Source: Mobula hypostoma
Taxonomy: Eukaryota
DNA: 64,000 nt
NCBI RefSeq assembly: GCF_963921235.1
Contig: NC_086108.1
Span: forward strand, 41,480,001-41,544,000
Direction: 5' to 3'
Shown piece after piece: positions 1 to 63,703 of the stretch. The position numbers were made by a program, and so were the translations under genes. The notes below the pieces were generated by a model that searched no databases, was not told the DNA's origin, and saw only the letters and a program-made list of their open reading frames with translations. Numbering within the stretch: the first letter of the stretch is position 1; the number at the start of each line of letters is the position of its first letter.

Positions 1-352
1 CACTCTGGCCTTTTACCTCTTCTCACCTACCTATCACCTCCTCCTTGGTCCCCTCCTCCTTCCCTTTCTCCTATGGTCCACTTTCCTCTCCTATCGATTC
101 CTTCCTCTCCAGCCCTTTACCTTTCCCACCCACCTGCTTTCACCTATCACCTACTAGCTAGCATCCTTCCCCTCTCCCCACCTTTTTATTCCCACTTCTT
201 CCCCCTTCCTTTCCAGTCCTGTTAAAGGGTCTCGGGCCGAAATGTCGACTGTTTATTCATTTCCATATATGCTGCCTGACCTGCTGAGTTCCTCCAGCAT
301 TTTGTGTGTGATGCTCTGGATTTCTAGCATCTGCGACTTTTTCATGTTTATG
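1..352 (+). mobile_element. Penelope-like 3' end fragment with decayed hammerhead motif (214-251)
   Basis: C/T-rich UTR followed by CAGTC-CTGTTAA-AGGGTCTCGGGCC-GAAATGTC-GACTG and gctgcctgacctgctgagttcctccagcattttgtgtgt. Confidence 0.85.
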
Positions 353-14780: not shown

Positions 14781-15734
14781 TACTTTACAATACTTTTTAA
14801 CATTGGATAAAAGAAGAGGTGCATTTAAAAAACAGTGACAGAAAAAAAATTGACATCGGTATTTCTCAGACAGAAAGAGATGTTATATGTTCAATGAACA
14901 ATATTGTCTGATCGCATAGTTTAAGTTTTACAGGTATTTCAAATATTTTAACTATCCGGGCATCTAAATTATATTTGTTCACGGCACTGAGTGCGAATCA
15001 GTTCTCAATGGCATTTCTCTACATGCTGCCAATATTAGTCATTTGAACATATTCAAGAAAGTTAGCCAGTTAAAATAAGTACAAAAAAACCAGATGATTA
15101 TGTTAATTATTATATTTAGCTCTATGGATTTAAACAACATTGAAACAAATGTACAAAACAGAATGTATGGTAAAGTTAGTCATGATTCTTTGTAGCAGGT
15201 TTGATTTTTTTAAAGGGTAACAACATTTTCTTTTTCCAGAACAATAACAGAACTGTACTTACCATTTAATGTGTAACTAAACCCTAGTGAATGAGTATGG
15301 AGTAATCGATAAGGCTGGAGCTGAGTCAATGCCTGGGAATATTTCCAATCTGAGGCACTTAGCATTTACAAATGAGTAATTTTTTTTCCATCTCACCATG
15401 TACAAATTATGAATATAAATTGGAAGTTTCTTCGCCTTCTCGGTGCTTTCCCAAAGATAGCAAGAGAATTAGAAACTTTAACCAGGGCTTCTCGGCCAAC
15501 TTCAGCTCTACCTCTCTCAGCCAAACCACAACTCTCCCAGATGATGGGTGAAATTAGAAACCAGGGGAAACTGAAAAAGCTTCTGTGTGTCGATGGTCTC
15601 ACAACTAATCCCCTTTATTTATAGGCAGTAATGTTTTCTGCAACGCAGGGTATTGGAGAAAGTAAGTTAATATGGACTGAAAACTGGCGGCCACATGGAA
15701 ACAAAGGATTGAAATAAATGAGCAATGGGCAGTC

Positions 15735-16010
15735 TCCTGGAAGAACTCAGCAGGCTGAGCAACATCTGTGGGCAGAAAGGAACTGTCAATGTTTCCATCT
15801 GAAACCCTGCGTCAGGACAGAGTGTACAGAGGGAAAATAGCCACTGGAGACAGAGAGTGGGCAGACAGAGGTCAGCGCTGGATAGAGGTGGGGGAGGGCA
15901 CTATTGAATGATCATGGGCAGATGGAATCACATAGGGGAGAGTGAGGACAAGGGCTGGAATTGGAAGACCAAATAGATGGAAGAAACAAAAAATAGGAAG
16001 AAGAATGAAC
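15735..16010 (-). mobile_element. Penelope-derived 3' repeat arm (hammerhead-like at 15783-15820)
   Basis: Minus strand CTGTC-CTGACGC-AGGGTTTCAGATG-GAAACATT-GACAG. Pairs as an inverted repeat with 17741-17940. Confidence 0.65.
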
Positions 16011-17740: not shown

Positions 17741-17940
17741 TCAGCACTAGCCTCTGTCTTACCACTCCCCCTCTCCTATTTGTACTGGCTAATTCCCTCC
17801 CTGCACTTTCATTCCTGATGTAGAGTTTCAAATTGAAATGTTCACACTACCTTTCTCCCACCAATGCTTCTTAACCCATGAAGTTTCTGGAGCAGAAAGT
17901 GTTGCTCCAAATCCCAACGTCTGCTGTCTCTTGTGTCTCA
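17741..17940 (+). mobile_element. Penelope-derived 3' repeat arm, decayed
   Basis: attcctgatgtagagtttcaaattgaaatgtt... followed by the family's 3' terminal motif. Confidence 0.6.
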
Positions 17941-31392: not shown

Positions 31393-31737
<345 letters not shown>

Positions 31738-32271
31738 TAGTGACCTTGGGGTGGGAGTAATCTTGTTTACACCAGTTCACAGTCTTCCCTTAAGATGCAG
31801 CCAATTCTGGTCTGGTGAAAGCGCGAAACCTCTGCAGGTTTAAAGAGGTGAAGTGAATGAAACGATTCTTGGCGTCCCCGACGTGATATTTACAGGGACA
31901 AACTTCCAGCCCGTTGCCAGAATATTGCTGGAATATCGAACAGCTCCGCTGTGATGTTCCATTAAAATACCGGACTGCATCTGTTGCTGACCTTGTGCAC
32001 ATTTAAATCCCGACAAATGCCAGCCCATCGCTGTGCTCTACCCAGCAGAGCGTTCGTATCGCTCGCTAGAGATGCCATTTGCTTTCTAAATCAGGCAATC
32101 GCCCTTAAATAAAACTCTTTAAGTGACGAGGTGCCCCCCACCTCGGTATCATGGTGGGAGAACCGGCCGCGCTTTTAATGAGTGCTCTACAGAAGAGCCG
32201 CCTCAAGGGAAGGGTGAAACTTGCGCCTCACGGCAATGTGACTCCCCTTCTCCCCTCTCGTTTCTTTTAAG

Positions 32272-32413
32272 GGTTTCTTCAAGCGCACAGTTCAAAATAA
32301 CAAAAGGTACACGTGTATAGAAAACCAGACCTGTCCGATCGACAAAACCCAGAGGAAGAGATGTCCCTATTGCCGCTTTCAGAAATGCCTCAATGTCGGG
32401 ATGAAGTTAGAAG
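32272..32413 (+). CDS. nr5a2: nr5a2 exon encoding second zinc finger
   Basis: Acceptor tttcttttaag|, donor G|gtaagg, 142 nt. Reads [47 protein letters not shown]. Confidence 0.97.
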
Positions 32414-32948
32414 GTAAGGCCCATCAGAACTAACTTGGGGCTGCTGCCTCGTCGGTCGGAGCTTCTAACCTGCATTTAAAATGATACCGTCAGGGTATAT
32501 TGAACATGAAGACATCAAAGCGGGACAGGCATTTATTTCGTTTTCCTCTTACAGTAAATACGCGTTGGTGCTTAAATTGTAGTGTAAACTCAACTCTTCC
32601 CCTTCCCCCCCACTGCATACCCGCTCGATTACATGTACAGACTCCAGCCCGGAGTAAAGTTTTGTTTAAGCAGATCCGAAGCACGCAGAAGGGAGTCACT
32701 CAGAATTACAAATGCGCGGTGTTCGCCAAATTTGAAACTGACGCAGAGAACTCCTGCACAAAAAGCGGATTCTGTGGATGTAAGTTAAATAGAGGAAGGA
32801 ACGGACTGCGGCTCCTTTAATTGAAACGAATAGAAGGGAAGTTCGAGGTCCATAGTACTTCACCCAACGTGTCGGGTGGGGTTACTGACATTAAAACAAT
32901 CCAGAAGTAACTAACCCTTTCTCTTTCACGTCAAATAAGCAGTTTAGT

Positions 32949-33000
32949 TTTTTCTTTAAAAAAAGAACAATAACTTTTTCTTTAAAAAAAGAACAATAAC
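32949..33000 (+). repeat. Perfect 26-nt tandem duplication
   Basis: TTTTTCTTTAAAAAAAGAACAATAAC x2. Confidence 0.92.
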
Positions 33001-34695
33001 TATAATTGATTCAAATTTCGTGATATCTGCAAATTAGTGATATAAATGGTGGCACGTTATGAAGTGTTGTCACCGACTTCGTAAAATTTTAACGTGTTGT
33101 TAAAGGTTATTAGTTGAAAGCAATTAATTGATGTAAAAGATGATTCCTTTTATAACTGTTGTTCAGAACTTCTCAGAGCCATATTTAAACCCACCGTACA
33201 GTATGGTTTCCATCCTTTATAAACAACAGGATTTGGTTAAACTAGTCGCAGCCTCAGAACGCGCTGATTGCGAACCGTGCCGCCTCTGAATTGTGGCTCG
33301 CTGACTACTATAGATCAGCCGGCTGTGTTAGCGATCAAATTCCAAGTGTTTGACTATTGCACCGTTTAATTTCAAACAGTACCAGAACGAAAACAGGCGA
33401 AGATGTACAGCATGTAGGCGGCGATTGGAGTTGATAGCACTCTTGACTATGAGCCGAGTGGTTCTGGGTTCCAGTCCAATTTCAAAGATTTGATTACTGA
33501 AATCCACGTCAGTGTAGCGCTGAAGAGTTACTGTCGAGGTGTAAAATGAAGTCTCCGGCTACTCCAGCCGCTGAAGATAAAAGATTACGGCTGTATTTGA
33601 GAGATGAGCGATGAGCGAGGTGGGGGTGGGGGCGGGGGAGTTTTGCCTGGTACCCTAACTGATGTCTGGCCATTGCCACATTGTTTTGCGTGGGAGCTTG
33701 CCTTGCATAGTCTGGTCGCAGTATTTCTTACAAAGCGATAACTTCAAAAAGTGCCTGGCTGGTTTTAATCTGCTTTGGGAGAGCGAACCGCGCTGTACAA
33801 ATGCAACGAAAAAATGCTGGAAATATTGGTCAGATCAGACAGCATCTCTGGAGAGAGAGCCAGTGCTAACCTATCAATAACTTCACATGATTTCTGCCTC
33901 CCTCTCCACAGAAGCTGCCTGACAGTTTCCCTTCCAAAACTTGACACAATCATCATCCAATGATATCCCTCTGGGCACATCCACTAGGTGAGGGACATCT
34001 GGCACCTGGCTGATCTGTTCAATCTGTAAGCTCTATTGCTTTCACTTTGAGTACTGAGAGGCCTTTTAGAAGAGTCTAAAAGCCTCTCTAGTATCCAAAC
34101 AGGGTCCCCAAAACACCACACAATTGAAAGATAATTGATTTTGACAGTTATTTCTGAATAATGGAGCCAGAAATTACAGCAATTACTTTTTTAGAAATAT
34201 TTATTGTCAGATGGAATCAGATCATGAATTTAGTTTATCTAAAATGAAGCTACAATAAATCCTTCTCTTGTCAGCTTCATTAAATAGATTTTGAAAACAG
34301 ACATGAGAACTGATTTCAAAATCATCCTAAAGTGTCCCCTTCCTTCATCCCTGTGATACCTTGACATCATTTGTCATGCTGGGTCATTTCGTCCCATCTT
34401 TTAGTGTCTTGCCACATCAATCCTGCAGGGCATGGTAGTGAAATGGTTAAATTATTGGATAAGCAGTTAGAGTTCTGGACCATTGATCCAGGGATATGAC
34501 TTTGAATCCCTCCACAGCAGTTGAGGAATTTAACTTCAAGTAAATATGGAATTTTAAGTAAAAATAATCTTGCCAGTAATAATCATGGAACTATGGCATT
34601 GTCATAAAAGTCATGTTTTGTGAATATTCCTCAGGGAATTAAGTCCATTATTTTTACTAAGTCTGAGATGTGAACCCAGCTTCACCTATGTGGTT

Positions 34696-34811
34696 CACTA
34701 TTCCTCTTCTCACCCTGTCTCTTGCACTATTCCTCTTCTCACCCTGTCTCTTGCACTATTCCTCTTCTCACCCTGTCTCTTGCACTATTCCTCTTCTCAC
34801 CCTGTCTCTTG
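34696..34811 (+). repeat. Four perfect tandem copies of a 29-nt unit at the 5' junction of the Penelope-like insertion
   Basis: CACTATTCCTCTTCTCACCCTGTCTCTTG starts at 34696, 34725, 34754 and 34783. The unit is element coding sequence (YSSSHPVSC), single-copy in the other element. Confidence 0.97.
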
Positions 34812-35935
34812 CAAAAACGCCATCCCCTTCTCGCAATTCCTCCGTCTCCGCCGCATCTGCTCTCAGGATGAGGCTTTTCATTCTAGGACGAGGGAGATGT
34901 CTTCCTTTTTTAAAGAAAGGGGCTTTCCTTCCTCCATTATCAACTCTGCTCTTAAACGCATCTCCCCCATTTCACGTACATCTACTCTCACTCCATCCTC
35001 CTACCACCCCACTAGGAATAGGGTTCCCCTGGTCCTCACCTACCGCCCCACCAGCCTCCGGGTCCAACATATTATTCTCCGTAACTTCCGCCACCTCCAA
35101 CGGGATCCCACCACTAAGCACATCCTTCCCTCCCCCCCCCTCTGCATTCCGCAGGGATCGCTCCCTACACAACTCCCTTGTCCATTCGTCCCCCCCATCC
35201 CTCCCCACTGATCTCCCTCCTGGCACTTATCCGTGTAAGCGGAACAAGTGCTACACATGCCCTTACACTTCCTCCCTCACCACCATTCAGGGCCCCAAAC
35301 AGTCCTTCCAGGTGAGGCATCACTTCACCTGTGAGTCGACTGGGGTGATATACTGCGTCCGGTGCTCCCGATGTGGCCTTTTATATATTGGTGAGACCCG
35401 ACGCAGACTGGGAGACCGCTTTGCTGAACATCTACGCTCTGTCCGCCAGAGAAAGCAGGATCTCCCAGTGGCCACACATTTTTATTCCACATCCCATTCC
35501 CATTCTGACATGTCTATCCACGGCCTCCTCTACTGTAAAGATGAAGCCACACTCAGGTTGGAGGAACAACACCTTATATTCCGTCTGGGTAGCCTCCAAC
35601 CTGATGGCATGAACATTGACTTCTCTAACTTCCGCTAGGCCCCACCTCCCCCTCGTACCCCATCTGTTACTCATTTTTATGCACACATTCTTTCTCTCAC
35701 TCTCCTTTTTCTCCCTTTGTCCCTCTGAATATACCTCTTGCCCATCCTCTGGGTCACCCCCCCCCCCGCCGTCTTTCTTCCCGGACCTCTTGTCCCATGA
35801 TCCTCTCGTGTCCCCTTTTGCCTATCACCTGTCCAGCTCTCGGCTCTATCCCTCCCCCTCCTGTCTTCTCCTATCATTTTGCATCTCCCCCTCCCCCTCC
35901 AGCTTTCAAATCCCTTACTCACTCTTCCTTCAGTT

Positions 35936-35971
35936 AGTCCTGACGAAGGGTCTCGGCCTGAAACTTCGACT
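35936..35971 (+). ncRNA. Minimal hammerhead ribozyme motif with a substitution in the stem III palindrome
   Basis: AGTC-CTGACGA-AGGGTCTCGGCCT-GAAAC-TTC-GACT; T replaces the G seen in the other copies. Confidence 0.75.
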
Positions 35972-36079
35972 GCACCTCTTCCTAGAGATGCTGCCTGGCC
36001 TGCTGTGTTCACCAGCAACTTTGATGTGTGTCACTTATGTGGTTGATTCTTTTTTTCATTGACAAACTGAACAAAATAA

Positions 36080-36345
36080 ACCCTACTGGCCCTTCAAGCC
36101 GTACCACTGAGTAATCCCCTGATTTAATCCTCGCCTAATCACGGAACAATTTGCAATAACCAATTAACCTACCAACTGGCAATCTTTGGACTGTAGGAGG
36201 AAACCAGAGCACCAAGGGGAAACTTGTGTGGTCACGGAGAATGTTTCGAATCCTTACAGGCAATGGTGGGAATTGAACCCTAGCAGCCTCTACTGTAAAG
36301 CATTTTGCTAACCACTCCAATGCTACCGTGCCATCCAACTGCACC
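36080..36345 (-). mobile_element. V-SINE-like element
   Basis: ggactgtaggaggaaaccagagcac core; tRNA-like head with gggttcaattccc on the minus strand. Confidence 0.75.
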
Positions 36346-36504
36346 TTTAGTTCAAGGAGAATTAGGGGTAGACAATAAATATCAACTTTACCTGTGACTC
36401 AGCATCCGGTGAAATATTTTTAAAATAGCAATAACAATCTAGCATTTTCCCTATTCCAAATCTCCACTACTTTTTTCCATTTCCTTCTTTCTCATCTTAG
36501 TATC

Positions 36505-37437
36505 AAAGTTCAAAGTAAATTTATTATCAAAGTACATATATGTCACCATACGAACCTGAGATTCATTTTTTTTTGTGAGCATATTAGGTAAATCCAGGAA
36601 ATATAATAGAATCAATGAAAAACCTAACCCCACAGGACAGATAACCAACCAATGTGCAAAAAACAACAAACTGTGCACATGCAAAAAAGAAATAATAATA
36701 AATAAAAGAACAATAAATATCAAGAACATGAGATGAAGATTCCTTGAAGGTGAGTCCATAGGTTGTGGCAACAGTTCAGTGATGAGGCGAGTGAAGTTAT
36801 CCCCTCTGGTTCAAGAGCCTAATGGTGAGGGGTAATAACTGTTCTGGAACCTGGTGGTGTGGGTCCTGAGGCTCCTGTACCTTCTTCCTGACGGCAGCAG
36901 AGAGAAGAGAGCATGTCCTGGATGGTGGGGGTCCCCAATAATGGATGCCACTTTCCTATGACAACGGTCCTTGTAGATGTGCTCAGTGGTAAGGAGGGCT
37001 TTACCTGTGATGGACTGGGCCACATCTACAACTTTTTGTCGGATCTTCCATTCAAGAGCATTGGTGTTTCCATACCAGGCCCTGATGAACCAGTCAATGT
37101 AATTTTCACCATGTATCTATAGAAGTTGGTCAAAAGTTTTAGATGTCATACCAGTTCTTTACAAACCTCTAAGGAGGTTGAGGCACTGCTGTGCTTTCTT
37201 TGTAATTGTACTTACATGCTGGGCCCAGGTCAGATCCTCTGAAATGATAACACCGAGGAGTTTAAAGTTGCTGATCCTCTCCATGTCTGATCCCCCCGAT
37301 GAGGACTCCAGCTTCCTCCTTCTAAAGTCAGTAATCAGCTCTGAAGGGTGGTACCCTTCCACCAGATTTTCCCTCCTATATGCCGATTTGTCACCACCCC
37401 TGACTCAGCCAACAGTAGTGGCGTCATCAGCAAACGT
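36505..37437 (-). mobile_element. Rex1/Babar-type LINE 3' fragment
   Basis: ELITDFRRR, GVIISEDLTW, DPHHPGHALFSLLPSGRRYRS. Confidence 0.88.
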
Positions 37438-39871
37438 CGATACTATCGAATAAAGTTCCATGCCATTGTATATTATGTAGTACGACTCAGGATTTTTCAA
37501 GTTTTCATGTACATTTTGCTGGCCACTAGCTCTACTGGAGAATACAGTTTTGTTGCCCCCGAAGTCTCTAGTTTTGCTCAAATGTAAAAAATAAAATGTT
37601 TTTACAGTTATATTTAGGTATCATGACAAGAAAATGTGAATAATTTTCAATGCAGGATATATTTTTTTAATTTATCTTTATAAATTACTTTAATTTTACC
37701 AAATTTCCTCATCTTTCTGGGCTATATTTCTGTGCATCACGTTTTTCTTGATTCTCATTTCACATTCCTCTACACTTAATTTACATCATTCTATACCAAT
37801 GCACATTAACCTACATTCTTCAGTTCATTCCCTATTTATATGTAGCATTTGGTATCAATATGTCAACACACAATCTCACTTCATATGACCTTTATAGACA
37901 TAAAGAATTAGGAATAACACATATAATGATATCTGAAATCACCGTTGTAAATACTTGCTAATCAATATGAGTTCTCACTTGTGCTTCAACCTACTATAAA
38001 GTTAACAGTAATTTTCTGGCTCCAGTGTAGAGCATTTCCCATGTTGTTTGATCATTTAGTCTCATGTACAAATCACTCAAAGATATTTGGAATAATTCTG
38101 TCAATGTATAATTAATTGATTCCAACAAAAACAAACAATTTGAAGGAATATTTTTGAGAAATTTCTGCTCTAAAACCTTATATTACTTGAATTATGTAAG
38201 GCTTAAATTTCTTGGGTGACCTGCCCTGTTACATTAATATATGGTCAGAATTTCAAGATAGCCTCTGAATTAGCATTTTCATATCAAAAATGCATGCTAC
38301 CCCAATTGCAATATGTTTTTATTTAAATTTCTGAAAAAATGGTATCTCAAAACAATTCTTTATATGGTATCTAGCAAATGTAGAATTAATCAATCCTGTG
38401 GTCAGTCCAAGAAAAACATAAGTTCCCTTTTTAATAGTCGGAGAAATATTTCACGTTCAGATTTGACCACTAAAACATCCTGAACAAATATGATACAGAG
38501 TTGATTTTTTTTGAAAGAGTATGTACTCTATGTATTGGTGGTTAATAATGAATGAGTGAACTGTTATTGGGACACAAATGGAAACACTTGACTAGATTTC
38601 ATGAAGCCAAGAATGTTTTCCCAGAGGAACTCACAATTAGTTACCGATCTGCATTCTACCATGTGGGTTTAGATCTCCCAATCATCAAAAGTTCTTGAAA
38701 TGGATATGCAAAGCCTAGAATAAATTTTTAATGTGGTACTAATTCCTAAGATGAACCAAAAACCTGATTGCAATCTCAGGTGTACGTCTCAGTGGCCTCA
38801 ATATATCACATAGCTGTCAAATGTTCCGGTTTTGCCCTGGTCACCAACGGCCTCAGTGAGAACATCTCAGTGGCAGTGAGACCTGCTCATTGCTGACAGA
38901 CACTACTGTGACAGAGATGATTAAAGTGACTCCCGAGGCATTCTTTGAATTGGATTTGTTTTAATTATTTTTAATTCCAGTGATATTAGAATATACTAAA
39001 TTGAACCAGGACTCCCGTTGAGCTTTTTTACACATGGAAAATATTACAGTACAATGGTGCATTGCTACTGTATAACACCATTTAAAGAAAAGGAGGAGGA
39101 AAACAGGCAGAAATACAAATGCCATATTGTAAGGAGCTGAAACAGAAATAAAAGCAAAAGAATAGGCACAAGGAAATAGAAAAAAGTGATGCATTTACAA
39201 AAGACAAATTAAAAGTTTGAAAGGAACCCCTCATGCAACCTCTACAAAAAGCAACTTTTTTTTATTTTAATGTATTTCTTTTACCCACGCACAGGAAATT
39301 TAAAATCATTTAAATGCAGATAAAGTCTGTAAACTGATTTCTAAGGAAGAAGCCTCCATCAATATTGAAACATATGAATCTGATTAATATATTTTATACA
39401 CAGTTACTGCATACATTAGTGTTCTTTCGTGCCACTGTCCCTTACTACTATTTTGCCTCCATGTTGATCAGTACATTTCATACTTACAGACACACCTATG
39501 CAGTCACAAGTGTGCCTGATCTGTTGAGCTGAAATCCGTTCTTCCCTTAGGAAAAATGCAAACTGTCCTGAAGCATAGTCTAAAGCACAGATTTTCTATG
39601 GTATAAAAATTAATATTTTGATTAAAATAATGATCAGCCTGTTAATGGTAAAGTGCCATTCCAGCCAGAGAATATTAAATTCGCATTCTATAAAACGGAC
39701 TACAGAAACGTAGCCTGTAACCAATGTTCTTGTATTGGTTTTAAAGTGTACAATATTTACTTCCTTATTTCTTTATTATTTTAGAGTAATGATGTCTGAG
39801 AAACAATTCAACACTTACAGATCTTGTATTGCTTTTTTCAGTCACCCAATAGATTGATTTTTTCTTAATAA

Positions 39872-40543
<672 letters not shown>

Positions 40544-46586: not shown

Positions 46587-46830
46587 GACAAGAGAAAATC
46601 TGCAGATGCTGGAAATCCAAGCAACACACACAAAATGCTGGAGAAACTCAGCAGGCCAGGCAGCATCTATGGAAAAGAGTACAGTTGACATCTTGGGCCA
46701 AGATCCTTCATCACTCTGACTCCTCATCTTTATTCCCAGTCCTGATTGAGAGTCTCGGCCCGAAACGCCAACTGTACCCTTTTCGATAGATGCTGCCTGG
46801 CCTGCTGAGTTCCTCCAGCATTTTGTGCAT
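46587..46830. mobile_element. Palindromic (head-to-head) Penelope-derived element made of two 3'-repeat arms
   Basis: Arm 46629-46723 is an imperfect reverse complement of 46742-46827. Each arm holds a decayed hammerhead. Confidence 0.85.
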
Positions 46831-47234
46831 GATGGAACAGCATTGAATAGGGCAGTTTTCTTCTTCAAGAAAACCTGCTTCACCAATTTGTGATACTGAT
46901 GTACAGCTAACATTTAAAATTGTGTTCGCTCCTTTCAAATGCTATGATTCCTCCACTGTATGCAAGGAACTGAAAAGGAAGTACAACAATATCATGTGTT
47001 GGTTTTTGGTCATGTGACAAAATAATGCTGCATGTTGAAGCCGGTCCCGTATCTGATCACCACACAGCCTAGAAGAATTGTTTTTAACTTACCGGCACTT
47101 GGATTCAATGCTGCTCAGAATTAGTATCATCCTCTCTTACCAATTTTTTTTCTCTGACATTTGGGTTGGATATTAAATCTGCTTACGCAAATAATTTAAA
47201 ATATTTTCTACTTTGGAATATTTTTTACCAATGC

Positions 47235-47952
47235 TCCTCTACTGCCAGGATGAGGCCACACTCAGGTTGGAGGAACAACACCTCAGATTCCATCTGGAAC
47301 ATCAATTTCTCTAATTTCTGGAAATTTCTCCTTCTTCCCCTTCGTTCTTTTTCCATTCCCCATTCCGGTTCCCCTCCTATCCCCTTTGCTTCGCCTCACC
47401 TGGCCATCACCTTTCTTCCATAGTCCACTTTCCTTTCCTAACACATTTCTTCTCCTCCTACCCTTCACCGCTTCTACCTACCATCTCCCAGCTTTTTGCG
47501 TAACCCACCTTTCCCCAAACTGGTTTCATCTATTACCTGTCAGCTTATGTTCTGTGCCCAATGAAGCAGTGGAGGCTACCTCATTAAATATATTTAAGAC
47601 AAAGTTAGATAGATCTTTGCATTGTAGAGGAATTAAGGGTTATGGGGAAAAGGTAGGTAGGTGGAGATGTCCATGGCCAGATTAGCCATGATCTTATTGA
47701 ATGGCGGAGCAGGGTCAACAGGCCTGATGGCCTACTCCTGCTCCCATTTCTTACGTTCTTATACTCCTTCCCCTCCCCCTACCTTCTTAGGCTGGCCTCT
47801 TCAGCCTTCCTTTCCATTCCTGATTAAGGCCCTTAGCCCAAAACACTGACTGTTAATTCCCTTCCATAGATGCTGCCTGACTTGATGAGTTCCTGCAGCA
47901 TTTTGCGCATGTTTCTCAAGATTTCCAGTATCTGCAGAATCTCTTGTGTTTA
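47235..47952 (+). mobile_element. Decayed Penelope-like 3' fragment with a nested CR1 3' end (~47550-47760)
   Basis: gatgaggccacactcaggttggaggaacaacacctc (DEATLRLEEQHL); decayed hammerhead at ~47816-47851. Confidence 0.8.
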
Positions 47953-50037
47953 TTATTTCCATTATAATTTTTGCAGGACTGAAACTAATAACCTTCTTAT
48001 AACAGAACTGTATGTGTGAACTGATAATATTTCATTGAAGGAACCATGTATTTGGCACCTGAGTGACTAGAAAAAGCAACTGCATATCTGCTTCAAAAAT
48101 CCACTTGAGGGACTATAGTGTTAACAGTGCATGCACTGAAAAGAAGTACAAATTAAACTGTGTGAATTCGATGTCAGATCAACAATGGGAAGCAAAATAA
48201 AAAAAGGAAGAGAGATTGGATTAAAAAAAGAGAAAAGAGGCAGCAGGAAGAATCTTTATTTATTTGATTTCAATGTTTTATAATCCCTTGAATTCAAATC
48301 TGAAGGAATGAGACTCTGCAGTAATTAATTTTTAGTACCAGTGATTATCTGAAAGTAATAAGTGCTAATTTCATTGTTAAAAGTATACTCAGACTGAGGT
48401 GGACAAGGCAATTTTCAGCAATGAGGTTAGTGTGTAGATTGTGCATCTTCAGTACAGTTGATTCACTCCTTTGGCAAGGCAGAGAGCAAGGTGCGATTTT
48501 CTCAAAAATAATGGCTTCTGAGACAGTAAATTTTGGATTTCAGCAATAAGCCACAAATTTGTCCTTCTCTGAAGTCGCTGCAGGATTTGAGCATAAATAC
48601 TACCAATTGCCATTAGGCTCACTGCTATTTTGAGAAGAAATCACGTCTAATTAAGTTCATGGTGCATTTTGTGCACTCCCTACTTGGACAAGTACGGTCT
48701 TACCTGCACCCAGGCTGAGGGCGAGCGTTATGATCTCTCGAGTGCCAGATTCACGGACTATAGCATCACGTCATGAGCTCTGCAAGCCTGTGCATCTGTA
48801 TTTTGTCTTACCTAAAGTCGTTAAGCCCTTCTGCTTTCTGCTTAATCTTGTTAAGTTTATTTTGACTGGCATGGGTTTTCTGCATACTCTGATTATTTAA
48901 AGTGGACCCCCAGTTAGCGATTATGGTCCTTTATGTTTTGAGAGTGATTCTTCTGGCGGTGTCGCATGGTCGAGCCACCAATGTTCTGCTGCAATTCCTA
49001 TGAATAAACTCTTGTTTCTGTCTCTACATGGGAGTGTGTCGTTCCTCCACATCTGAGTTCAGTTGTTAGTCAGAGCGCAGCATGACCCTTCACTTCTGCT
49101 CTTCGGAGGCTTTAACTTAACCTGCTATTGTCAAAACCTCAATAGATCTACTGAGTCCTCCTATTTTCCACTTTGCTGACGTTGTTATAGTGCAAGACTG
49201 CTGATCTCAAGCATGTCCTTCTAGTTATTCTTACATAGCTCTACGATAACCTATAATTTACAAATTAGATAGCCTTATTTTACATTCTCCAATATTATAG
49301 GGGAGATGTATATAATGTTATAATATTACCTAGGTCAGTGACAACCCAATTGTGTCACAAATAATTAATTGGCTTTCTTATAGGAGAGATCAGGAAAGTA
49401 CAGCATTGTTAATGCCCTCATCGCTATAGGTAACCCAGCTTTCTTATGCCCTGAAACTCACTTTGGAAACCATTCCATGCACCTACCTACCTGCATTCCA
49501 TCCCTTGAAAGCCTTTCTGCTGCTAGAACTTATAGATATTGATCCAAATTCACTTTAACTTTTAGCAATAATTGGAATTGGAACTTGAAGGTTAAAACAG
49601 GACTTCAGAGACCTGTTGGCATAAGTGCAGCTCTTTCCCTGTGAACTACGTGGTCATGATTCTGTGCTGAGGGTCTAATGTAAGTACACGTTGTTGGAGA
49701 CTTAAATCTATTTGGCAGTTCTGAAGGTGTACAATTAGGAGATCTTACAAAAAAGATCTTGAATTTCAGAAAGGGAAAATAACACCTTTTTCCAAAAGTA
49801 TACAGCATATGGGAGAAAACTTGTAAGAATCTACATTTAAAAATCATGTCAAATCTTGAACTGCGAAAACACTTTGGACATTGTGCTAGTGTTTGTCTGT
49901 TGAAAATTCTTATAAATTCATACATAAAGGGGGATATTTTATAAAAAGAAAGTGAAAAGATGCCAGTTGGCTGGTTCTAGAATCCAGTAAGCTCCTCTGT
50001 ATGCTGACTGCTTCCTGAACTGAATGGCTTTCTGGGA

Positions 50038-50070
50038 ACACAGATCAAAGTTGCTGGTGAACGCAGCAGA
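50038..50070 (-). mobile_element. 33-nt insertion of the extreme 3' terminus of the young Penelope-like family
   Basis: ACACAGATCAAAGTTGCTGGTGAACGCAGCAGA matches 52870-52901 and the reverse complement near 36000-36030. Flanked by TTTCTGGGA at 50029-50037 and 50071-50079. Confidence 0.85.
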
Positions 50071-51485: not shown

Positions 51486-52929
51486 TTTTTTTTTCTCTTT
51501 TAAAATCTTTCTTTTAACGTTTGTTAATTCTGTAAGTTGCTTGTTCTGAGCTTCCACGGCAGTGTATTTTGGTTTCTTTTAGTACCAGTTATCTTGCTGC
51601 TGCCCAGCAATCTCCTTCTCTTTCATTACCTTCGCTGGACTGCAGGAAAGAGCAATTGCACAAAAATCATTGTCTTTATCACCATCAACCCACCTCCCTT
51701 CTCTCACTCCACCCATCCCATTTCTTCCCCCTCCCACACACCAGAAGGCCCACAGTAAACAGTCAGACTGTTCTGCTTACCTCCACAGGTATTGTCAGAT
51801 GTGACCTTGGAAAATAAAGAAATGGAAACAGATAAATTATTACAATCTCCTTCTGGCAAGAGCTGCTTTCAGTTCTTGAGTTGTTCTCATCTGCAATCGA
51901 TCCTCCTCATTTGAAAACAGCCACTTTTCCCAGAGCACCACAGTAACACTATATTCCCAGCACAGATGTTTCTGATTGAATTGTAGATGGTTCAGCTGGA
52001 GTTTGGAATTATATTTACTTTTGTAGGTACTTGACTTGCGAGTCTTCTAGCTTGGATGTTTCCGTTCCTGTCTCTTACAGTGGTTAATGCAAAGTTAATG
52101 TATTTGTCAGCTGCCTTCAAGCTTGCAGATATTGATCAAAATTCATTTTACCTCCCAGCAATATTTGGAATTTGTTACCCTAACTAAAAGGATAAAGCAG
52201 GGTTTTGGTTGGAGGTGGATGGACTTTCTCACTGATAAGGTTTTCCCCGAATATTGGTAATTTCAGATGGGTTAACGTAACAGGGAGGTGGTCTATTCTA
52301 CTTCTGTGACCAAGCGCTTATTGGACAGCTTAATGATATTATTGACTGGCATTTTTTACCTGTTCATTTAGTGCTCATTATCCATATCCAGACCTTTTTT
52401 GTAATCATTATATAGGTACTTCTGTGAGCATAATTCATCTGGCACCATTAATTTGTCACAATTTTCTTCTAAAAATTGTCTCAATTTTATTTTCTTTATC
52501 TGTACTCTATTCACAATTAATCTCCTCTTACCCTATACCTTTTTTTCTTCCCTAACCTTGTCTATCATCATGGCTATCAGTGGCAATGATATATTTTGCT
52601 CACTCCTCTATTTGTTGTAGTCCGTTAGGTAGAGCAAGGTTATTTCATTGATGAAATGCATCCTTCCTGTCTGCCCTTCCTTCCAGCTACAACATGTTGG
52701 TGCTCAGCCTTTTGGGAAGATCCTTAGCACAATTACCTCAATCTAGAATCTGAATTTGGATTACCACAAGTGCTTCAGCTCCTCCACTGGAATGGGGCCA
52801 TTTTGACTCTCTACCCTTACCTATAGTTGGGATTGTTGAGAGGAAATTACAATGTGTAAGAGACAGGCAACATACATCAAAGTTACTGGTGAACGCAGCA
52901 GGCCAGGCAGCACCTGTAGGAAGAGGTGC

Positions 52930-52965
52930 AGTCAACGTTTCAGGCCGAGACCCTTCGTCAGGACT
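52930..52965 (-). ncRNA. Minimal type I hammerhead ribozyme motif, intact core
   Basis: Minus strand reads AGTC-CTGACGA-AGGGTCTCGGCCT-GAAAC-GTT-GACT. Stem I is AGTC/GACT, core CUGANGA, stem II AGG/CCT, then GAAA, palindromic AACGTT and an NUH triplet GUU. Confidence 0.85.
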
Positions 52966-53259
52966 AACTGAAGGAAGAGTGAGTAAGGGATTTGAAAGTT
53001 GGAGGGGGAGGGGGAGATCCAAGATGATAGGAGAAGACAGGAGGGGGAGGGATAGAGCCGAGAGCTGGACAGGTGATAGGCAAAAGGGGATACGAGAGGA
53101 TCATGGGACAGGAGGTCCGAGAAGAAAGACGGGGGGGGGGTGACCCAGAGGATGGGCAAGAGGTATATTCAGAGGGACAGAGGGAGAAAAAGGAGAGTGA
53201 GAGAAAGAATGTGTGCATAAAAATGAGTAACAGATGGGGTACGAGGGGGAGGTGGGGCC

Positions 53260-55412
53260 TTAGCAGAAGTTAGAGAAGTCGATGTTCATGCCATCAGGTT
53301 GGAGGCTACCCAGACGGAATATAAGGTGTTGTTCCTCCAACCTGAGTGTGGCTTCATCTTTACAGTAGAGGAGGCCGTGGATAGACATGTCAGAATGGGA
53401 ATGGGATGTGGAATTAAAATGTGTGGCCACTGGGAGATCCTGCTTTCTCTGGCGGACAGAGCGTAGATGTTCAGCAATGCGGTCTCCCAGTCTGCGTCGG
53501 ATCTCGCCAATATATAAAAGGCCACATCGGGAGCACCGGATGCAGTATATCACCCCAGTCGACTCACAGGTGAAGTGATGCCTCACCTGGAAGGACTGTT
53601 TGGGGCCCTGAATGGTGGTAAGGGAGGAAGTGTAAGGGCATGTGTAGCACTTGTTCCGCTTACAAGGATAAGTGCCAGGAGGGAGATCAGTGGGGAGGGA
53701 TGGGGGGGACGAATGGACAAGGGAGTTGTGTAGGGAGCGATCCCTGCGGAATGCAGAGAGAGGGGGGGAGGGAAAGATGTGCTTAGCGGTGGGATCCCGT
53801 TGGAGGTGCCGGAAGTTACGGAGAATAATATGTTGGACCCGGAGGCTGGTGGGGTGGTAGGTGAGGACCAGGGGAACCCTATTCCTAGTGGGGTGGTAGG
53901 AGGATGGAGTGAGAGCAGATGTACGTGAAATGGGGGAGATGCGTTTAAGAGCAGAGTTGATAATGGAGGAAGGAAAGCCCCTTTCTTTAAAAAAGGAAGA
54001 CATCTCCCCCGTCCTAGAATGAAAAGCCTCATCCTGAAAGCAGATGCGGCGGAGACGGAGGAATTGCGAGAAGGGGATGGTGTTTTTGCAAGAGACAGGG
54101 TGAGAAGAGGAATAGTCCAGATAGCTGTGAGAGTCAGTAGGCTTATAGTAGACATCAGTGGATAAGCTGTCTCCAGAGACAGAGACAGAAAGATCTAGAA
54201 AGGGGAGGGAGGTGTCAGAAATGGACCAGGTAAACTTGAGGGCAGGGTGAAAGTTGGAGGCAAAGTTAATAAAGTCAACGAGTTCTGCATGCGTGCAGGA
54301 AGCAGCGCCAATGCAGTCGTCGATGTAGCGAAGGAAAAGTGGGGGACAGATACCAGAATAGGCACGGAACATAGATTGTTCCACAAACCCAACAAAAAGG
54401 CAGGCATAGCTAGGACCCATACGGGTGCCCATAGCTACACCTTTAGTTTGGAGGAAGTGGGAGCAGCCAAAGGAGAAATTATTAAGAGTAAGGACTAATT
54501 CCGCTAGACGGAGCAGAGTGGTGGTAGAGGGGAACTGATTAGGTCTGGAATCCAAAAAGAAGCGGAGAGCTTTGAGATTTTCCTGATGGGGGATGGAAGT
54601 ATATAGGGACTGGACATCCATGGTGAAAATAAAGCGGTGGGGGCCAGGGAACTTAAAATCATCGAAAAGTTTAAGAGCGTGAGAAGTGTCACGAACATAG
54701 GTCGGAAGGGATTGAACAAGGTATGATAAAACAGTGTCGAGGTATGCAGAAATGAGTTCGGTGGGGCAGGAGCAAGCTGAGACAATAGGTCGGCCAGGAC
54801 AGGCAGGTTTGTGGATCTTGGGTAGGAGGTAGAAACGGGAAGTGCGGGGTGTGGGAACTATAAGGTTGGTAGCAGTGGATGGGAGATCCCCTGAGCGGAT
54901 AAAGTCGGTGATGGTGTGGGAGACAATGGCCTGGTGCTCCTTACTGGGGTCACGATCGAGGGGTAAATAAGAGGAGGTATCCGCGAGTTGTTGCTGTGCC
55001 TCGGCAAGGTAGAGGTCAGTACGCCAGACTACAACAGCACCCCCCTTATCGGTGGGTTTAATAATAAGGTTAGGATTAGTGCGGAGGGAGTGGAGAGCAG
55101 AGCGTTCCGAAGGAGTGAGGTTGGAATGGGGACAAGGTGCGGTGAAGTCGAGACGGTTGATGTCCCGTCGGCAGTTAGCAATAAAGAGATCCAGAGCAGG
55201 CAGAAGACCAGAGCGGGGTGTCCATGAAGAAGAGGAGGGTTGAAGACGGGAGAAGGGGTCATCGGTGGGGGTGGAAGAGTCCTTGCCGAAGAAGTAGGCT
55301 CGGAGACGGAGACGGCGGAAGAAAAGTTCCGCATCGTGGCGAACACGGAACTCACTGAGGTGTGGGCGAAGGGGGACAAACGTGAGGTCCAGAGCAGGCA
55401 GAAGACCAGAGC
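53260..55412 (-). CDS. Penelope-like reverse transcriptase / GIY-YIG endonuclease ORF (N-terminally truncated)
   Basis: Stop-free element-derived portion of the 776-aa ORF; RT and GIY-YIG motifs as above. Confidence 0.9.
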
Positions 55413-57349
55413 GTGTAAGATACATTACAGTTTTGTCATACTTTAATTCTCCAATGATAGGTACACAGTTATTCACTACTAAATATTCACAAAGGCAGGT
55501 ATGATGATTTCCTTGTTTAACAACTGATGTTTGTTTTGCCTTTTCTAATTTTTGATTTGGAGCACATAAATTCTCATAAATTTTGCACATATATAAGTTG
55601 TGTATGTTGCTTCAGGTAGTAGTTGTTATCACTGGAGCAGTTTTATAAATAATAAGTACCCCCATTTGCATCTTATCAGAATACATATGTTCTGGATTCT
55701 CTTTTTCAATTACTCATCTGCAGCTGGAACTGAACTTATTTTTGTCTGTGTGTTGTTGCACCAAGCCAGTAAATGGCTCCTACTCCTGATCATAGGTCAA
55801 AGAATTTCCAAGTAACTTGCTCTTTGAAAGACCCCAAAACTGAATAACAGGAGAGTCACAAGGCAACCGGGAATTTCAAAGTAATTGCTTCCAGAATCTC
55901 ACCCATAATCAATAGGAAGATGTTAGTAATTGGAGCCCTGGACAAATTCTACCTTCATGTTGGGTTTTTTAGTGAGAGACAAAAGACATCGGACATGGCA
56001 CATCTTGTGATTCTAATTGAAATTTCCGCTGTTTATATGAGGACCCACTCACTGAAAGTCGGTGAGCTTGCAAGCTCCACAACGCATTTGAGCACAAGGG
56101 CAGTTTAACAGCCGTGGGGCTGGAGAGCACATAGGAGCCCCAGGTGATTTGTTTTTGGTGTGACTGATGGCATATCACTGGAAAAGAGATATTTCCTTCT
56201 TTCAAAGATGTGCATGTCAATTTGAAATCAATTACTTTTATATAGAAAATAAAAGGCCCTTGGGTAGACCAGAGAGCAGCATTCACCAGCTGATTTGAAG
56301 CAAGGATTGTCAGGAAATAGACTGCAATAAGAAAACGTTCACCAGGGAATAATGACATGGAGATTTAGTCTTTTACTGCCAAGAATTTCAGTGACTTCCA
56401 GTGATATGGTGTCAATAACCAAGACCCTGTAGCTTTCTTCAAAGGCATGCATTTTCTGAACATGACTGAGAAATGTTTGTGGTTCTGGTGAGTAATTTAA
56501 CTTAGCTAAATTCATTAAAATTTTAATGCATTTTCTGAAAAGATTTGCTTTAAGAGGGATAGTTAATACAATAATTTGGAATAGTATTTCTCCAACCCTG
56601 TGTACTATACAATAGTCCATATTGATTCAAAACTAGTACGTTTCTATGAGGGTCCTGTGGATAACTAAAGTGAGACTTGGTTATCTTAATTGAGACTACA
56701 GATAGGTACAACACTTGGCAACAGTGGAAAGCTTTTGAATAATTGGCTCTAATTGGCAGCTCTGCAGAAAAAAATTGTGAAGAAAAAAGACATTAAAGAT
56801 AAAATTAGTGGATCATTTCTTGCTAATAAGCTAAGTCATCCATCAGTTTGTTTTCATACTTTTAATTGTTTGGCCTTTGAAGAGGAAGCAATTTTATACC
56901 ATCAGTGTTCTCTAAAAGATAGCAAACGTCCTCAGTTCAAAGTTGGAGAAAAACTAATTTACGTTGTGGGTGGTTTTCTGAGATAGTATTGTGTCAGCTT
57001 GATGATTGGATTGGGAAGTAGAGCTAACATAGCCGCATAGCTGATGAAATGAATCATTTCCTAGGTTGCTTCTCTCATCATGGAATGTTTTGACAGACCA
57101 AAAGGAGAGCTGTTCTAATTTTAATAGGCTGCAGCTGGATCCTGCTGTGATGAGTGCACTCACTATTACCATACAGTATTTCCTTGTAGAACACTTTAAC
57201 ACCTAGTCTGTTTAAAAGTTCCATTATTGCAATTAACCCTACAAATGCATTAAGTAGCTCCTATGATTTTACAATAATGTTGTTCTTTATTTAATAGGAC
57301 AATTTAATTATATTAAGATAAATGTGCATTAATTTTTAGCAAAGGTACC

Positions 57350-61096: not shown

Positions 61097-61168
61097 AAAC
61101 CTTTGTCTTATTGTGAGCATTTTGAAACTGTGAAACCTTTGTCTTATTGTGAGCATTTTGAAACTGTG
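61097..61168 (+). repeat. Perfect 36-nt tandem duplication
   Basis: AAACCTTTGTCTTATTGTGAGCATTTTGAAACTGTG x2. Confidence 0.93.
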
Positions 61169-61484
61169 AAAGATTTGCTTTGAAGCGTGATCCAAAATTA
61201 TACTCTATACTATTAATTTCTTCTGTACCTGTATGCCATCACTTCCCTTCAAAGCTGAAAAATTGTTGGACTTTTACTATTTCTGAGGGGTTAAAGTCAA
61301 GGTTGTCTTTTAATTTGCAGCAAGGTCTGAAATTTCCTCTTGTTTGAATAGCTACAACTGGGCAGGGTACTGGAAATGTCCACTGACATCTCACTTATAG
61401 AACTCCTGACTCCTTGACTCAAGCCTGATAGGATCAGGCCTGTGTGTGAAGTTTGGTTTGAGTCCAATGTATCCATTGGTTAAA

Positions 61485-63703
61485 CAGTAAACACAAAATG
61501 CTGGAGGAACTCAGCAGGCAAGCAGCATTTATGGAAAAAGTACATAGTAAACATAGACATAGAACAGTACAGCACAGTACAGGCCCTTCAGCCAACAATG
61601 TTGTGCCGACCCTCAAACCCTGCCTCCCATATAACCCCCCACCTTAAATTCCTCCATATACCTGTCCAGCAGTCTCTTAAACTTCACTAGTGTATCTGCC
61701 TCCACCACTGACTCAGGCAGTGCATTCCACGCACCAACCACTCTCTGAGTGAAAAACCTTCCTCTAATATCCCCCTTGAACTTCCCACCCCTTACCTTAA
61801 AGCCATGTCCTCTTGTATTGAGCAGTTCTGCCCTGGGGAAGAGGCGCTGGCTATCCACTCTATCTATTCCTCTTAATATCTTGTATACCTCTATCATGTC
61901 TCCTCTCATCCTCCTTCTCTCCAAAGAGTAAAGCCCTAGCTCCCTTAATCTCTGATCATAATCCATACTCCCTAAACCAGGCAGCATCCTGGTAAATCTG
62001 CTCTGTACCCTTTCCAATGCTTCCACATCCTTCCTATAGTGAGGTGACCAGAACTGGACACAGTACTCCAAGTGTGGCCTAACAAGAGTTTTATAGAGCT
62101 GCATCATTACATCGCTACTCTTAAACTCTATCCCTCGACTTATGAAAGCTAACATCGCATAAACTTTCTTAACTACCCTGTCTACCTGTGAGGCAACTTC
62201 CAGGGATCTGTGGATGTGTACCCCCAGATCCCTCTGCTCCTCCACACTGCCATTTACTTTGTACTTTGCCTTGGAGTTTGTCCTTCCAAAGGGTACCACC
62301 TCACACTTCTCTGGGTTGAACTCCATCTACCACTTCTTAGCCCACTTCTGCATCCTATCAATGTCTCTCTGCAATCTTCAACAATCCTCTACACTATCTA
62401 CAACACCACCAACCTTTGTGTCATCTGCAAACTTGCCAACCCACCCTTCTACCCCCACATCCAGGTCGTTTATAAAAATCATGAAAAGTAGAGGTCCCAG
62501 AACAGATCCTTGTTGGAAACCACTAGTCACAATCCTCCAATCTGAATGTACTCCCTCCACCATGACCCTCTGCCTTCTCCACCTGGTCAAACTTCCCTGG
62601 ATCCCATGCCTTCTAACTTTCTGAATAAGCCTACTGTGTGGAACCTTGTCAAATGCCTTACTAAAATCCATGTAGATCACATCAACGTTTTGGGCCAAGA
62701 CCCTTCAGCAGGACTGGAGGCAAAATGATGAGGAGTAGATTTAAAAGCTGGGGGAGGAGAGAGAGAAGCAGAAAGTGAACCGACCATCAAGCCCATCTTT
62801 CCCTCCTCTCCCCACTTTCTGCTTTCCGTAGGGATCGCTCCCTACATGACTCCCTTGTCCATTCATCCCTACCCACTGATCTTCCTCCTGGCACTTATCC
62901 TTGCAAGTGGAACAAGTGCTACACCTGCCCCTACACCTCCTTCCTCACTACCATTCAGGGCCCCAAACAGTCCTTCCAGGTGAGGTGACACTTCACCTGT
63001 GAGTCTGTTGTGGGTGGTCATAAACTGTGTCCGGTGCTCCCAGTGTGGCCTCCTGTATATCGGAGAAACCCGACATAGGAGTCTGTTTCGTCGAGCACCT
63101 ACGCTCCATTCCCCAGAAGAAGTGGGATCTCCTGTGGCCACCCATTTTAATTCCATTTCCCATTCCCATTCTAATTTATCAATCCATGGCCTCCTCCACT
63201 GTTGTGATGAGGCTACATTCAGGATGGAGGAACAACACCTTATGTTCCATCTGGGTAGCCTCCAACCTGATGGAATGAACATTAATTTCTCCAGTTTTGG
63301 CCCTCCCTCTTCACCAATTCCCATCCCTTTTCCCTCTCTCACCTTATCTCCTTGCCTGCCCATCTTCTCCCGCTGGTGCTCCTCCCTCCTTTTCTTTCTT
63401 CGATAGCCTCCTATCCTCACCTATCAGACTTCCCCTTCTCCAGCCCTGTATCGCCTTCTACAATCAACTTCCCAGCTCCTTGCTTCATCCCCTCCCCTTT
63501 CTGCTTTCACCCATCACCTTGTGTTTCTCTCTCCCCTCCCCCACCTTTTAAACCTGCTCCTCATCTTTTTTTCTCCTGTCCTGCTGAAGGGTGTTGGCCC
63601 AGAATGTTGACTGTACGCTTTCTATAGATGCTGCCTGGCCTGCTGAGTTCCTCCACCATTTTCTGAGTGCTGCTTGGAGAACATCTGCAGATTTTCTCTT
63701 GTT
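61485..63703. mobile_element. Penelope-like insertion: inverted 3'-repeat arm (61485-61544 plus 62682-62780) and + strand GIY-YIG/3' end (62780-63703), interrupted by a CR1
   Basis: ORF 62999-63406 VINCVRCSQCGLLYIGETR. Both arms carry the variant CCTGCTGAAGGGT. Confidence 0.85.
61545..62683 (-). mobile_element. CR1 LINE 3' fragment nested in the Penelope-like arm
   Basis: ORFs 62378-62698 ([24 protein letters not shown]) and 61613-62326 (LVRPHLEYCVQFWSP). Short tandem tail at the left end. Confidence 0.93.

Follow-up and report, generated by a model that had tools for sequence, protein, structure and literature searches.

The window analysed here, the whole stretch of 64,000 nucleotides (64 kb), carries three exons of nr5a2 on the plus strand (31420-31539, 32269-32415 and 39827-40537), with 90-98% identity to the skate protein; residues 330-519, encoded by later exons, lie beyond the window. 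Antisense to this gene, and likely within one of its long introns, is a truncated copy of a Penelope-like element. Its 3′ terminal repeat holds a short stretch that sequence comparison confirms as a genuine minimal hammerhead ribozyme motif. An earlier note had proposed an element which encodes a reverse transcriptase (RT) and a GIY-YIG endonuclease and whose terminal repeat carries a minimal type I hammerhead; both the protein domains and the position of the motif bear this out. The features are collected in Table 1.

Table 1. Features of the host element and of related copies in the 64-kb window
Feature	Coordinates	Strand	Remarks
Minimal type I hammerhead motif	52930..52965	-	Matched by the full descriptor; ranked first by the covariance model
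Penelope-like element copy, probably Neptune-type, 5′-truncated	52866..55412	-	2547 bp; 3′ terminal repeat only
Open frame	53260..55410	-	716 codons + stop, N-terminus missing; DKG, RT (YIDD), CX4CxxC, GIY-YIG
3′ untranslated stretch, stop codon to hammerhead	52966..53259	-	Pyrimidine-rich; differs between subfamilies
Conserved box downstream of hammerhead	52866..52929	-	Short 3′ end; loose ends at 52867
Target-site duplication, 3′ copy	52854..52865	-	8 bp exact, 12 bp with one mismatch
Target-site duplication, 5′ copy	55413..55424	-	
30-nt duplicate of internal 55186-55215 at 5′ junction	55384..55413	-	29/30 identical
Second young copy, same subfamily, frameshifted	34696..36031	+	Hammerhead 35936-35971, full core, broken palindrome
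Target-site duplication of second young copy	34683-34695 / 36032-36044		
Older terminal-repeat remnant with tail	172..345	+	Hammerhead 214-251, core 9/11
Older, more divergent remnant	15723..15860	-	Hammerhead 15783-15820, core 10/11; stem II and palindrome broken
Older, more divergent remnant	17768..17940	+	Hammerhead ~17811-17846, core 10/11; stem I broken
Two terminal-repeat remnants, head to head in a fold-back	46588..46834	both	
Older remnant with tail	47773..47945	+	Hammerhead ~47816-47851, core 8/11
Inverted arm of older copy	62682..62766	-	Core 9/11; truncated within stem I by a different insertion
Older 5′-truncated copy	62789..63700	+	Tailed; hammerhead 63577-63613 with core 8/11, preceded by UTR and an endonuclease fragment of 81% DNA identity

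Read directly from 52965 to 52930, the minus strand gives AGTC CTGACGA ... GAAAC GTT GACT, letter for letter as previously written. With hammerhead positions numbered as in Fig. 1 of PMC4209133, stem I is made of AGUC and GACU (4 bp, 4/4 paired) plus a U.G pair, and the core CUGACGA is followed by one extra A after A9. Stem II joins GGGU to GCCU (4 bp, 4/4 paired) around the loop CUCG and is closed by G10.1.U11.1; after it come GAAA, CG, U16.1 and U17. All core bases are kept (11/11), the H of the NUH triplet is U, and the cut is predicted between 52934 and 52933. There is no stable stem III, its place being taken by the palindrome ACGU (15.2-16.2). The hexamer AACGTT had been put forward in this role, but it is not the substitute, because it includes A14 and N17.

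The position of the extra nucleotide depends on how stem II is closed. A register without an extra base, pairing A10.1 with U11.1, is ruled out by the C/U variation at 11.1, which pairs with G, and by stem II pairing in relatives. The variation of 11.1 between C and U suits G and not A as its partner, which agrees with an unpaired extra A and a pair with G10.1. This pair, highly conserved as G-C in the published class, is G.U in the 52930 copy; over the contigs described below, U11.1 accounts for 71-82% and C11.1 for 18-29% of depth, and relatives display G-C in 16/16.

The host element contains an open frame of 2.15 kb, with its stop about 295 nt upstream of the motif. The RVT_1 match of this frame is weak (E 3e-5, below the curated cut-off), as is the GIY-YIG match in the frame of the sister copy, also below the curated cut-off. 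The homologues of the frame are RT + GIY-YIG proteins; identity is 91-93% with gene models of Mobula hypostoma, 70-80% with proteins of other rays and sharks (Hypanus, Chiloscyllium and Rhincodon) and 42-56% with invertebrate elements, so that the host is probably a ray. Two ray gene models (P0019 and P0031), named as isoforms of divergent protein kinase domain 1C and chitinase domain-containing protein 1, consist mostly of the element ORF and are likely annotation artefacts or exonised copies. The linker of the frame reads CKRNKCYTC, that is CX4CxxC, which fits CX2-5CxxC, and a CCHH motif is formed by CSRC, between the VIY and YIG motifs, with the conserved H639 and H655. Compared with full-length homologues, the copy has lost some 190 N-terminal codons, and its endonuclease is substituted at conserved positions (YIGET to YIGEI, DRF to DRI). 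It stops at the short 3′ end, without the 30-40 nt tail present in other copies. The predicted cut site lies 68 nt from this end at 52866; the motif had thus been rightly placed near the 3′ end of the element, although the distance had been given as about 60 nt.

The CX2-5CxxC linker is described as common to Neptune and Nematis and absent in Penelope/Poseidon (PMC8557442). The CX4CxxC linker of the element thus excludes Penelope/Poseidon and points to one of the first two clades; Neptune is the likely one, the choice against Nematis being made from the linker and one shared motif. Further Neptune-clade features, namely 5′ truncation, inverted arms, an optional 30-40 bp tail and target-site duplication, are all present among the window copies.

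All ten motifs listed by the earlier note are present in the window, and they share a common origin: with nine of them as input, an nhmmer profile recovers the tenth (62682, E 2e-12) together with five weaker remnants, and ten shuffles gave nothing below E 0.44. They do not, however, represent one young family, since identities of 96.8% on one side and 69-81% on the other separate at least two age classes or subfamilies. Only 52930 and 35936 retain 11/11 core bases, the other eight having 8-10/11, and only 52930 keeps the palindrome, CT replacing CG at 35936. The second young copy differs from that at 52930 by 33 substitutions (25 transitions, 9 CpG-type) and 4 indels in 1258 columns.

Both young copies show a direct duplication of 29-30 nt of element sequence at the 5′ junction, which in the second takes the form of four identical tandem 29-mers (34696-34813, plus strand). 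These duplications could reflect RT template jumps or reiterative copying, and the 30-nt duplicate at 52930's own element is likely a template jump. In both, moreover, the single mismatch of the target-site duplication falls on the fourth base from the side of the element's 3′ end. No microsatellite target was seen at the two young insertions, and the window holds neither a full-length nor a tandem copy.

Among the copies two 3′ ends occur, the short one or another 30-40 nt further on, and two loci have inverted arms. In the fold-back pair, the minus arm starts at the 5′ edge of the hammerhead core and is tailed (motif 46682, core 8/11), and the plus arm, without tail, has its hammerhead at 46737-46774 (core 8/11). 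At the other locus, a LINE fragment (61613-62680), which we take to be CR1-like, appears inserted in stem I of the older hammerhead and splits the inverted arm of the 62789-63700 copy; the remainder of this arm is likely 61490-61552. More short terminal-repeat remnants lie at 3505-3558, 3740-3791, 33811-33864 and 50034-50069, the last being 36 bp from the young subfamily. Sequence present twice in perfect tandem, 26 bp at 32949-33001 and 36 bp at 61097-61171, was also noticed. The box 52866-52929 is complementary to the tail of the copies at 214, 46682, 47816 and 63577. A consensus fold of box and tail from five copies predicts a long helix bracketing both 3′ ends, with weak covariation (2/20 pairs change on both sides, covariation term unfavourable at +1.4).

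How well the motif stands out from its background depends on how much of it is asked for. The loose pattern CTGANGA-N5-30-GAAA alone occurs in the window at chance level, with 6 matches against 6.7 expected. The full descriptor, which adds both stems and the palindromic middle to the core, matches once in the window, at 52930, and never in 50 local shuffles. A covariance model built from 13 distant loci, all outside the window and from other organisms only, ranked 52930 first in the window (30.6 bits, rough E 6e-6), followed by 35936 and then 62682. A search with the hammerhead models of Rfam, a check suggested earlier, gave no match at the gathering threshold over the whole window nor at E<=10 over 52800-53100; this miss is not evidence against the motif, because the model derived from relatives detects it. 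The folding energy is unremarkable (z -0.12). With ViennaRNA, an inactive fold comes out ahead of stems I and II alone in the monomer (-8.4 against -6.0 kcal/mol) and is likewise preferred in an artificial tandem (-25.1 against -8.9); these energies omit the tertiary core, so that the unfavourable value of the drawn active dimer says nothing on that core. As a model result, this preference fits weak activity.

Relatives of the ORF are encoded by 80 metagenome loci, with 38-63% best-segment identity, of which 29 were eligible for a motif search because their endonuclease end is complete and followed by 350 nt or more. The strict palindromic motif is found in sense, 96-142 nt downstream of the endonuclease end, at nine of these 29 loci and is absent at the other 20; it is found antisense at none, nor in 100 shuffles. 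If as many as 3 substitutions are allowed, a core can be recognised at 19/29, in some cases doubtfully, and at 10/29 there is none even of this relaxed kind within 400 nt. No protein relative was detected in viral contigs (0 of 85 candidates), and the exact 52930 motif is found in no metagenome contig. The CX2-5CxxC linker recurs in 26 of the 38 related loci that have an endonuclease motif.

When relatives were selected on the core only (19 matches, 16 distinct motifs), stem I showed 41/48 Watson-Crick pairs vs 16.8 after partner shuffling, a score reached in 0 of 10000 trials, and stem II 48/48 pairs in the register with the extra nucleotide vs 29/48 without it. The extra A and G10.1-C11.1 are present in all 16. 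In an alignment of 14 rows, chosen with a stem criterion from relatives that are not independent (about six come from one coral family), 9/11 pairs change on both sides, and pairing falls from 90% to 16-37% when partners are slid. Covariation of stems I and II among relatives, which had been named as a check, is thus supported at the sequence level. Elements with only 40-55% protein identity thus retain every catalytic core base as well as the NUH triplet.

Several of these loci deserve mention in their own right. The motif of L020 (46% identity over 530 aa) is the one listed for an Acropora digitifera Neptune element in Table S1 and Fig. S3 of PMC4209133. At L030 (121-164) the hammerhead has AGCU for ACGU, a double change of CG to GC by which the palindrome is kept. 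GUU triplets also occur in L017, L018 and L053. Upstream copies of the motif precede the ORF in L010, L013 and L030. In the full-length relatives L010:260-3406 and L013:310-3726, the long ORF reads through the 5′ hammerhead, the first ATG of L010 lying inside the core; their 5′ hammerhead is both coding and structured.

Variation within the family was followed in contigs of four sequencing runs, aligned to 52700-53300 at 82% likeness (about 91,000 contigs per large run). N17 is C in 86, 79, 95 and 95% of contig depth. Because the family majority is C17 (GUC), the GUU triplet of the 52930 copy, and with it AACGTT, represents decay of CpG type. Judged from these contigs, the family palindrome is ACGU and its cut triplet GUC. 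The motif had been called intact, which holds for the 11 core bases but not for N17, where it carries U and 79-95% of the depth has C. Matches to contigs from other subfamilies stop at both edges of the motif, 52929 and 52965, in all four runs, and depth peaks over the motif: the hammerhead is the module common to the subfamilies. The 5′ edge of stem I (52964-52965) collects heterogeneous loose ends, in run X5 from 163 contigs with an agreement of 0.33, and no loose end at the cut site is found among the rows listed (24 of about 1370). The ratio of repeat depth to unique-flank depth reaches about 5e5 to 2e6 (five to six orders of magnitude), which shows only great abundance and gives no copy number, because contigs overlap and are summed.

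These runs also bear on age. A 3687-nt contig of X5 (organism B) agrees with the flank 52700-52865 apart from 4 differences, ceases to match once it reaches the target-site duplication and continues for some 2280 letters; a contig of X1 (organism A) spans the element junction with 0 differences. An empty site for the 52930 insertion in a sister species about 2.4% apart is likely on this evidence. The copy has about 5 near-private changes in 430 bp, which give it an age similar to the sister-species split. On these sequence grounds it is a fairly young, truncated copy. The family can be called recently active, as the earlier note had it, on an evolutionary scale, because of the open 2.15 kb frame, the target-site duplications and the probable empty site.

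The reading that we prefer, with a probability of roughly 0.88, is that a 5′-truncated copy, likely of Neptune type, bears at 52930..52965, within its 3′ terminal repeat, a minimal type I hammerhead, that motifs of tandem master elements likely dimerise via ACGU and cut after GUC with the aid of protein, and that the solitary GUU copy is likely an inert passenger. Minimal hammerheads are reported to need a dimer and to have low activity as RNA alone (PMC4209133), and cleavage in an Anolis element is protein-assisted (PMC11167929). By analogy, tandem master elements would be transcribed through two terminal repeats, and the two motifs of the master RNA would jointly form stem III through their ACGU palindromes. 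Cleavage after GUC, weak or assisted by protein, would then trim or monomerise the RNA, and target-primed reverse transcription would start about 70 or 105 nt downstream of the cut site, giving the two 3′ ends. Nearly every insertion would carry one hammerhead because reverse transcription starts just downstream of it and usually stops early. Some ten relics per 64 kb would then be found because each truncated insertion keeps one hammerhead, which decays neutrally. The fold would be under selection only in rare master elements. The 52930 copy, with no 5′ repeat, no tandem or dimer partner and substitutions at conserved endonuclease positions, is likely inert.

A different view is that the motif is conserved in this family as a structural or protein-binding signal (for RT loading, as a pause or termination site, or as part of the ORF start or of an internal promoter) and has ceased to cleave usefully. 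The hammerhead of the Anolis element is dispensable for insertion in vitro, where core mutants insert normally, and no RNA-seq reads end at its cut site in the data of that paper (PMC11167929), while Naiad elements thrive without a hammerhead (PMC8557442). In our material, the pile of loose ends at 52964-52965, with none at the cut site among the 24 rows listed of about 1370, and the drift from G10.1-C11.1 to G.U in the young subfamily point the same way. Yet a pure binding signal need not preserve all catalytic core bases and the NUH triplet at 40-55% protein identity, and related motifs do cleave, weakly or with protein (PMC4209133, PMC11167929). We therefore consider a mere signal unlikely, though it deserves to be kept in mind beside the preferred reading of a cleaving master element.

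A bolder extension of that preferred reading would have a still-transposing Neptune family with motifs on the order of 10^5, far more than any genome of the 2014 survey (PMC4209133), whose intronic neighbours dimerise, are chaperoned by protein and cut host pre-mRNAs, and whose 5′ duplications stem from telomerase-like reiterative copying. We hold this to be quite improbable; were it true, the family would be the best natural test of the in vivo role of Penelope hammerheads.

Still harder to credit is that the 52930 copy itself is an active ribozyme, kept by selection, which cuts host or antisense transcripts at nr5a2 as a monomer or paired. Its 11/11 core bases, both stems and its palindrome would allow it, and among natural minimal hammerheads GUU is not confined to this one (Fig. 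S3 of PMC4209133; L017, L018 and L053). Nevertheless, the motif lies outside the host pre-mRNA, because the copy is antisense to nr5a2 (exons on the plus strand at 31420-40537). It has lost C17, has no intact partner on the same strand nearby and appears absent in the sister species, and a copy so young, with its few near-private changes, would be expected to carry few mutations regardless. As for a chance likeness of a repeat's UTR to the hammerhead consensus, with which the frequency of the loose core pattern, the folding z-score and the missing Rfam match would agree, its probability is negligible and it is ruled out by the shuffles, which never gave the full descriptor, by the independent covariance model, and by distant relatives that hold the motif at the same place with compensatory changes and whose stems pair even when chosen on the core only.

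In the literature, the combination of RT, GIY-YIG endonuclease and minimal hammerhead is standard for Penelope-like elements. Such hammerheads were described in 2014 by Cervera and De la Pena in the pseudo-LTRs of metazoan Penelope-like elements of the Neptune, Poseidon and Xena types, fishes included (PMC4209133). The motif itself is consequently of little moment, minimal hammerheads being the norm of these elements, and its value is as material: the abundance of the family, its young copies, its G-C/G.U and GUC/GUU variants and its many 5′ breakpoints give power on questions of germline cleavage and of how insertions are shaped. Our literature search returned no paper on this cartilaginous-fish family, which Repbase, Dfam or preprint supplements may list; it may be an unreported member of the class in cartilaginous fishes.

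The motif resembles that published class in being type I, with CUGANGA plus an extra nucleotide, G10.1, GAAA, a palindromic 15.2-16.2, an NUH triplet and a short stem I, and in its place in the 3′ repeat of mostly 5′-truncated copies, some in inverted pairs (PMC4209133). G.U closing pairs and U17 both occur in the list of Fig. S3 there; its stem II of 4 bp, on the other hand, is short, unlike that of the class as described. No cartilaginous fish is among the species of Table S1 or Fig. S3 of that survey. As to the Neptune clade, the single ORF with RT and C-terminal GIY-YIG endonuclease, the CX2-5CxxC linker and the CCHH motif agree with its description (PMC8557442), from which the family differs by the lack of a microsatellite target at the young insertions and of a full-length or tandem copy in the window.

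Two further systems invite comparison. In the Poseidon element PAc of Anolis carolinensis (PMC11167929), the hammerhead likewise lies upstream of two reverse-transcription starts which define a tail, with similar spacing from cut site to 3′ ends. PAc, however, has no Zn-finger linker, which the window family has, and its ORF starts in stem II; moreover, its cleavage has been shown, with protein assistance, whereas that of the window family is predicted. Animal non-LTR retrozymes, reported in one chondrichthyan genome, also carry a type I hammerhead derived from Penelope terminal repeats (bioRxiv 10.64898/2026.07.22.740005). They are non-coding head-to-tail tandem arrays, whereas the window copies are dispersed and that at 52930 is attached to an RT-endonuclease frame. 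Identity with a retrozyme was rejected, as no tandem array with the motif exists in the window and the 52930 copy is joined to an ORF. Lastly, the 10 recognisable motifs per 64 kb far exceed the density behind the genome totals of about 4,000 and 9,000 termed ‘remarkable’ in PMC4209133, those being strict matches while ours include relics, and it is only by this abundance that the window family is set apart from its class.
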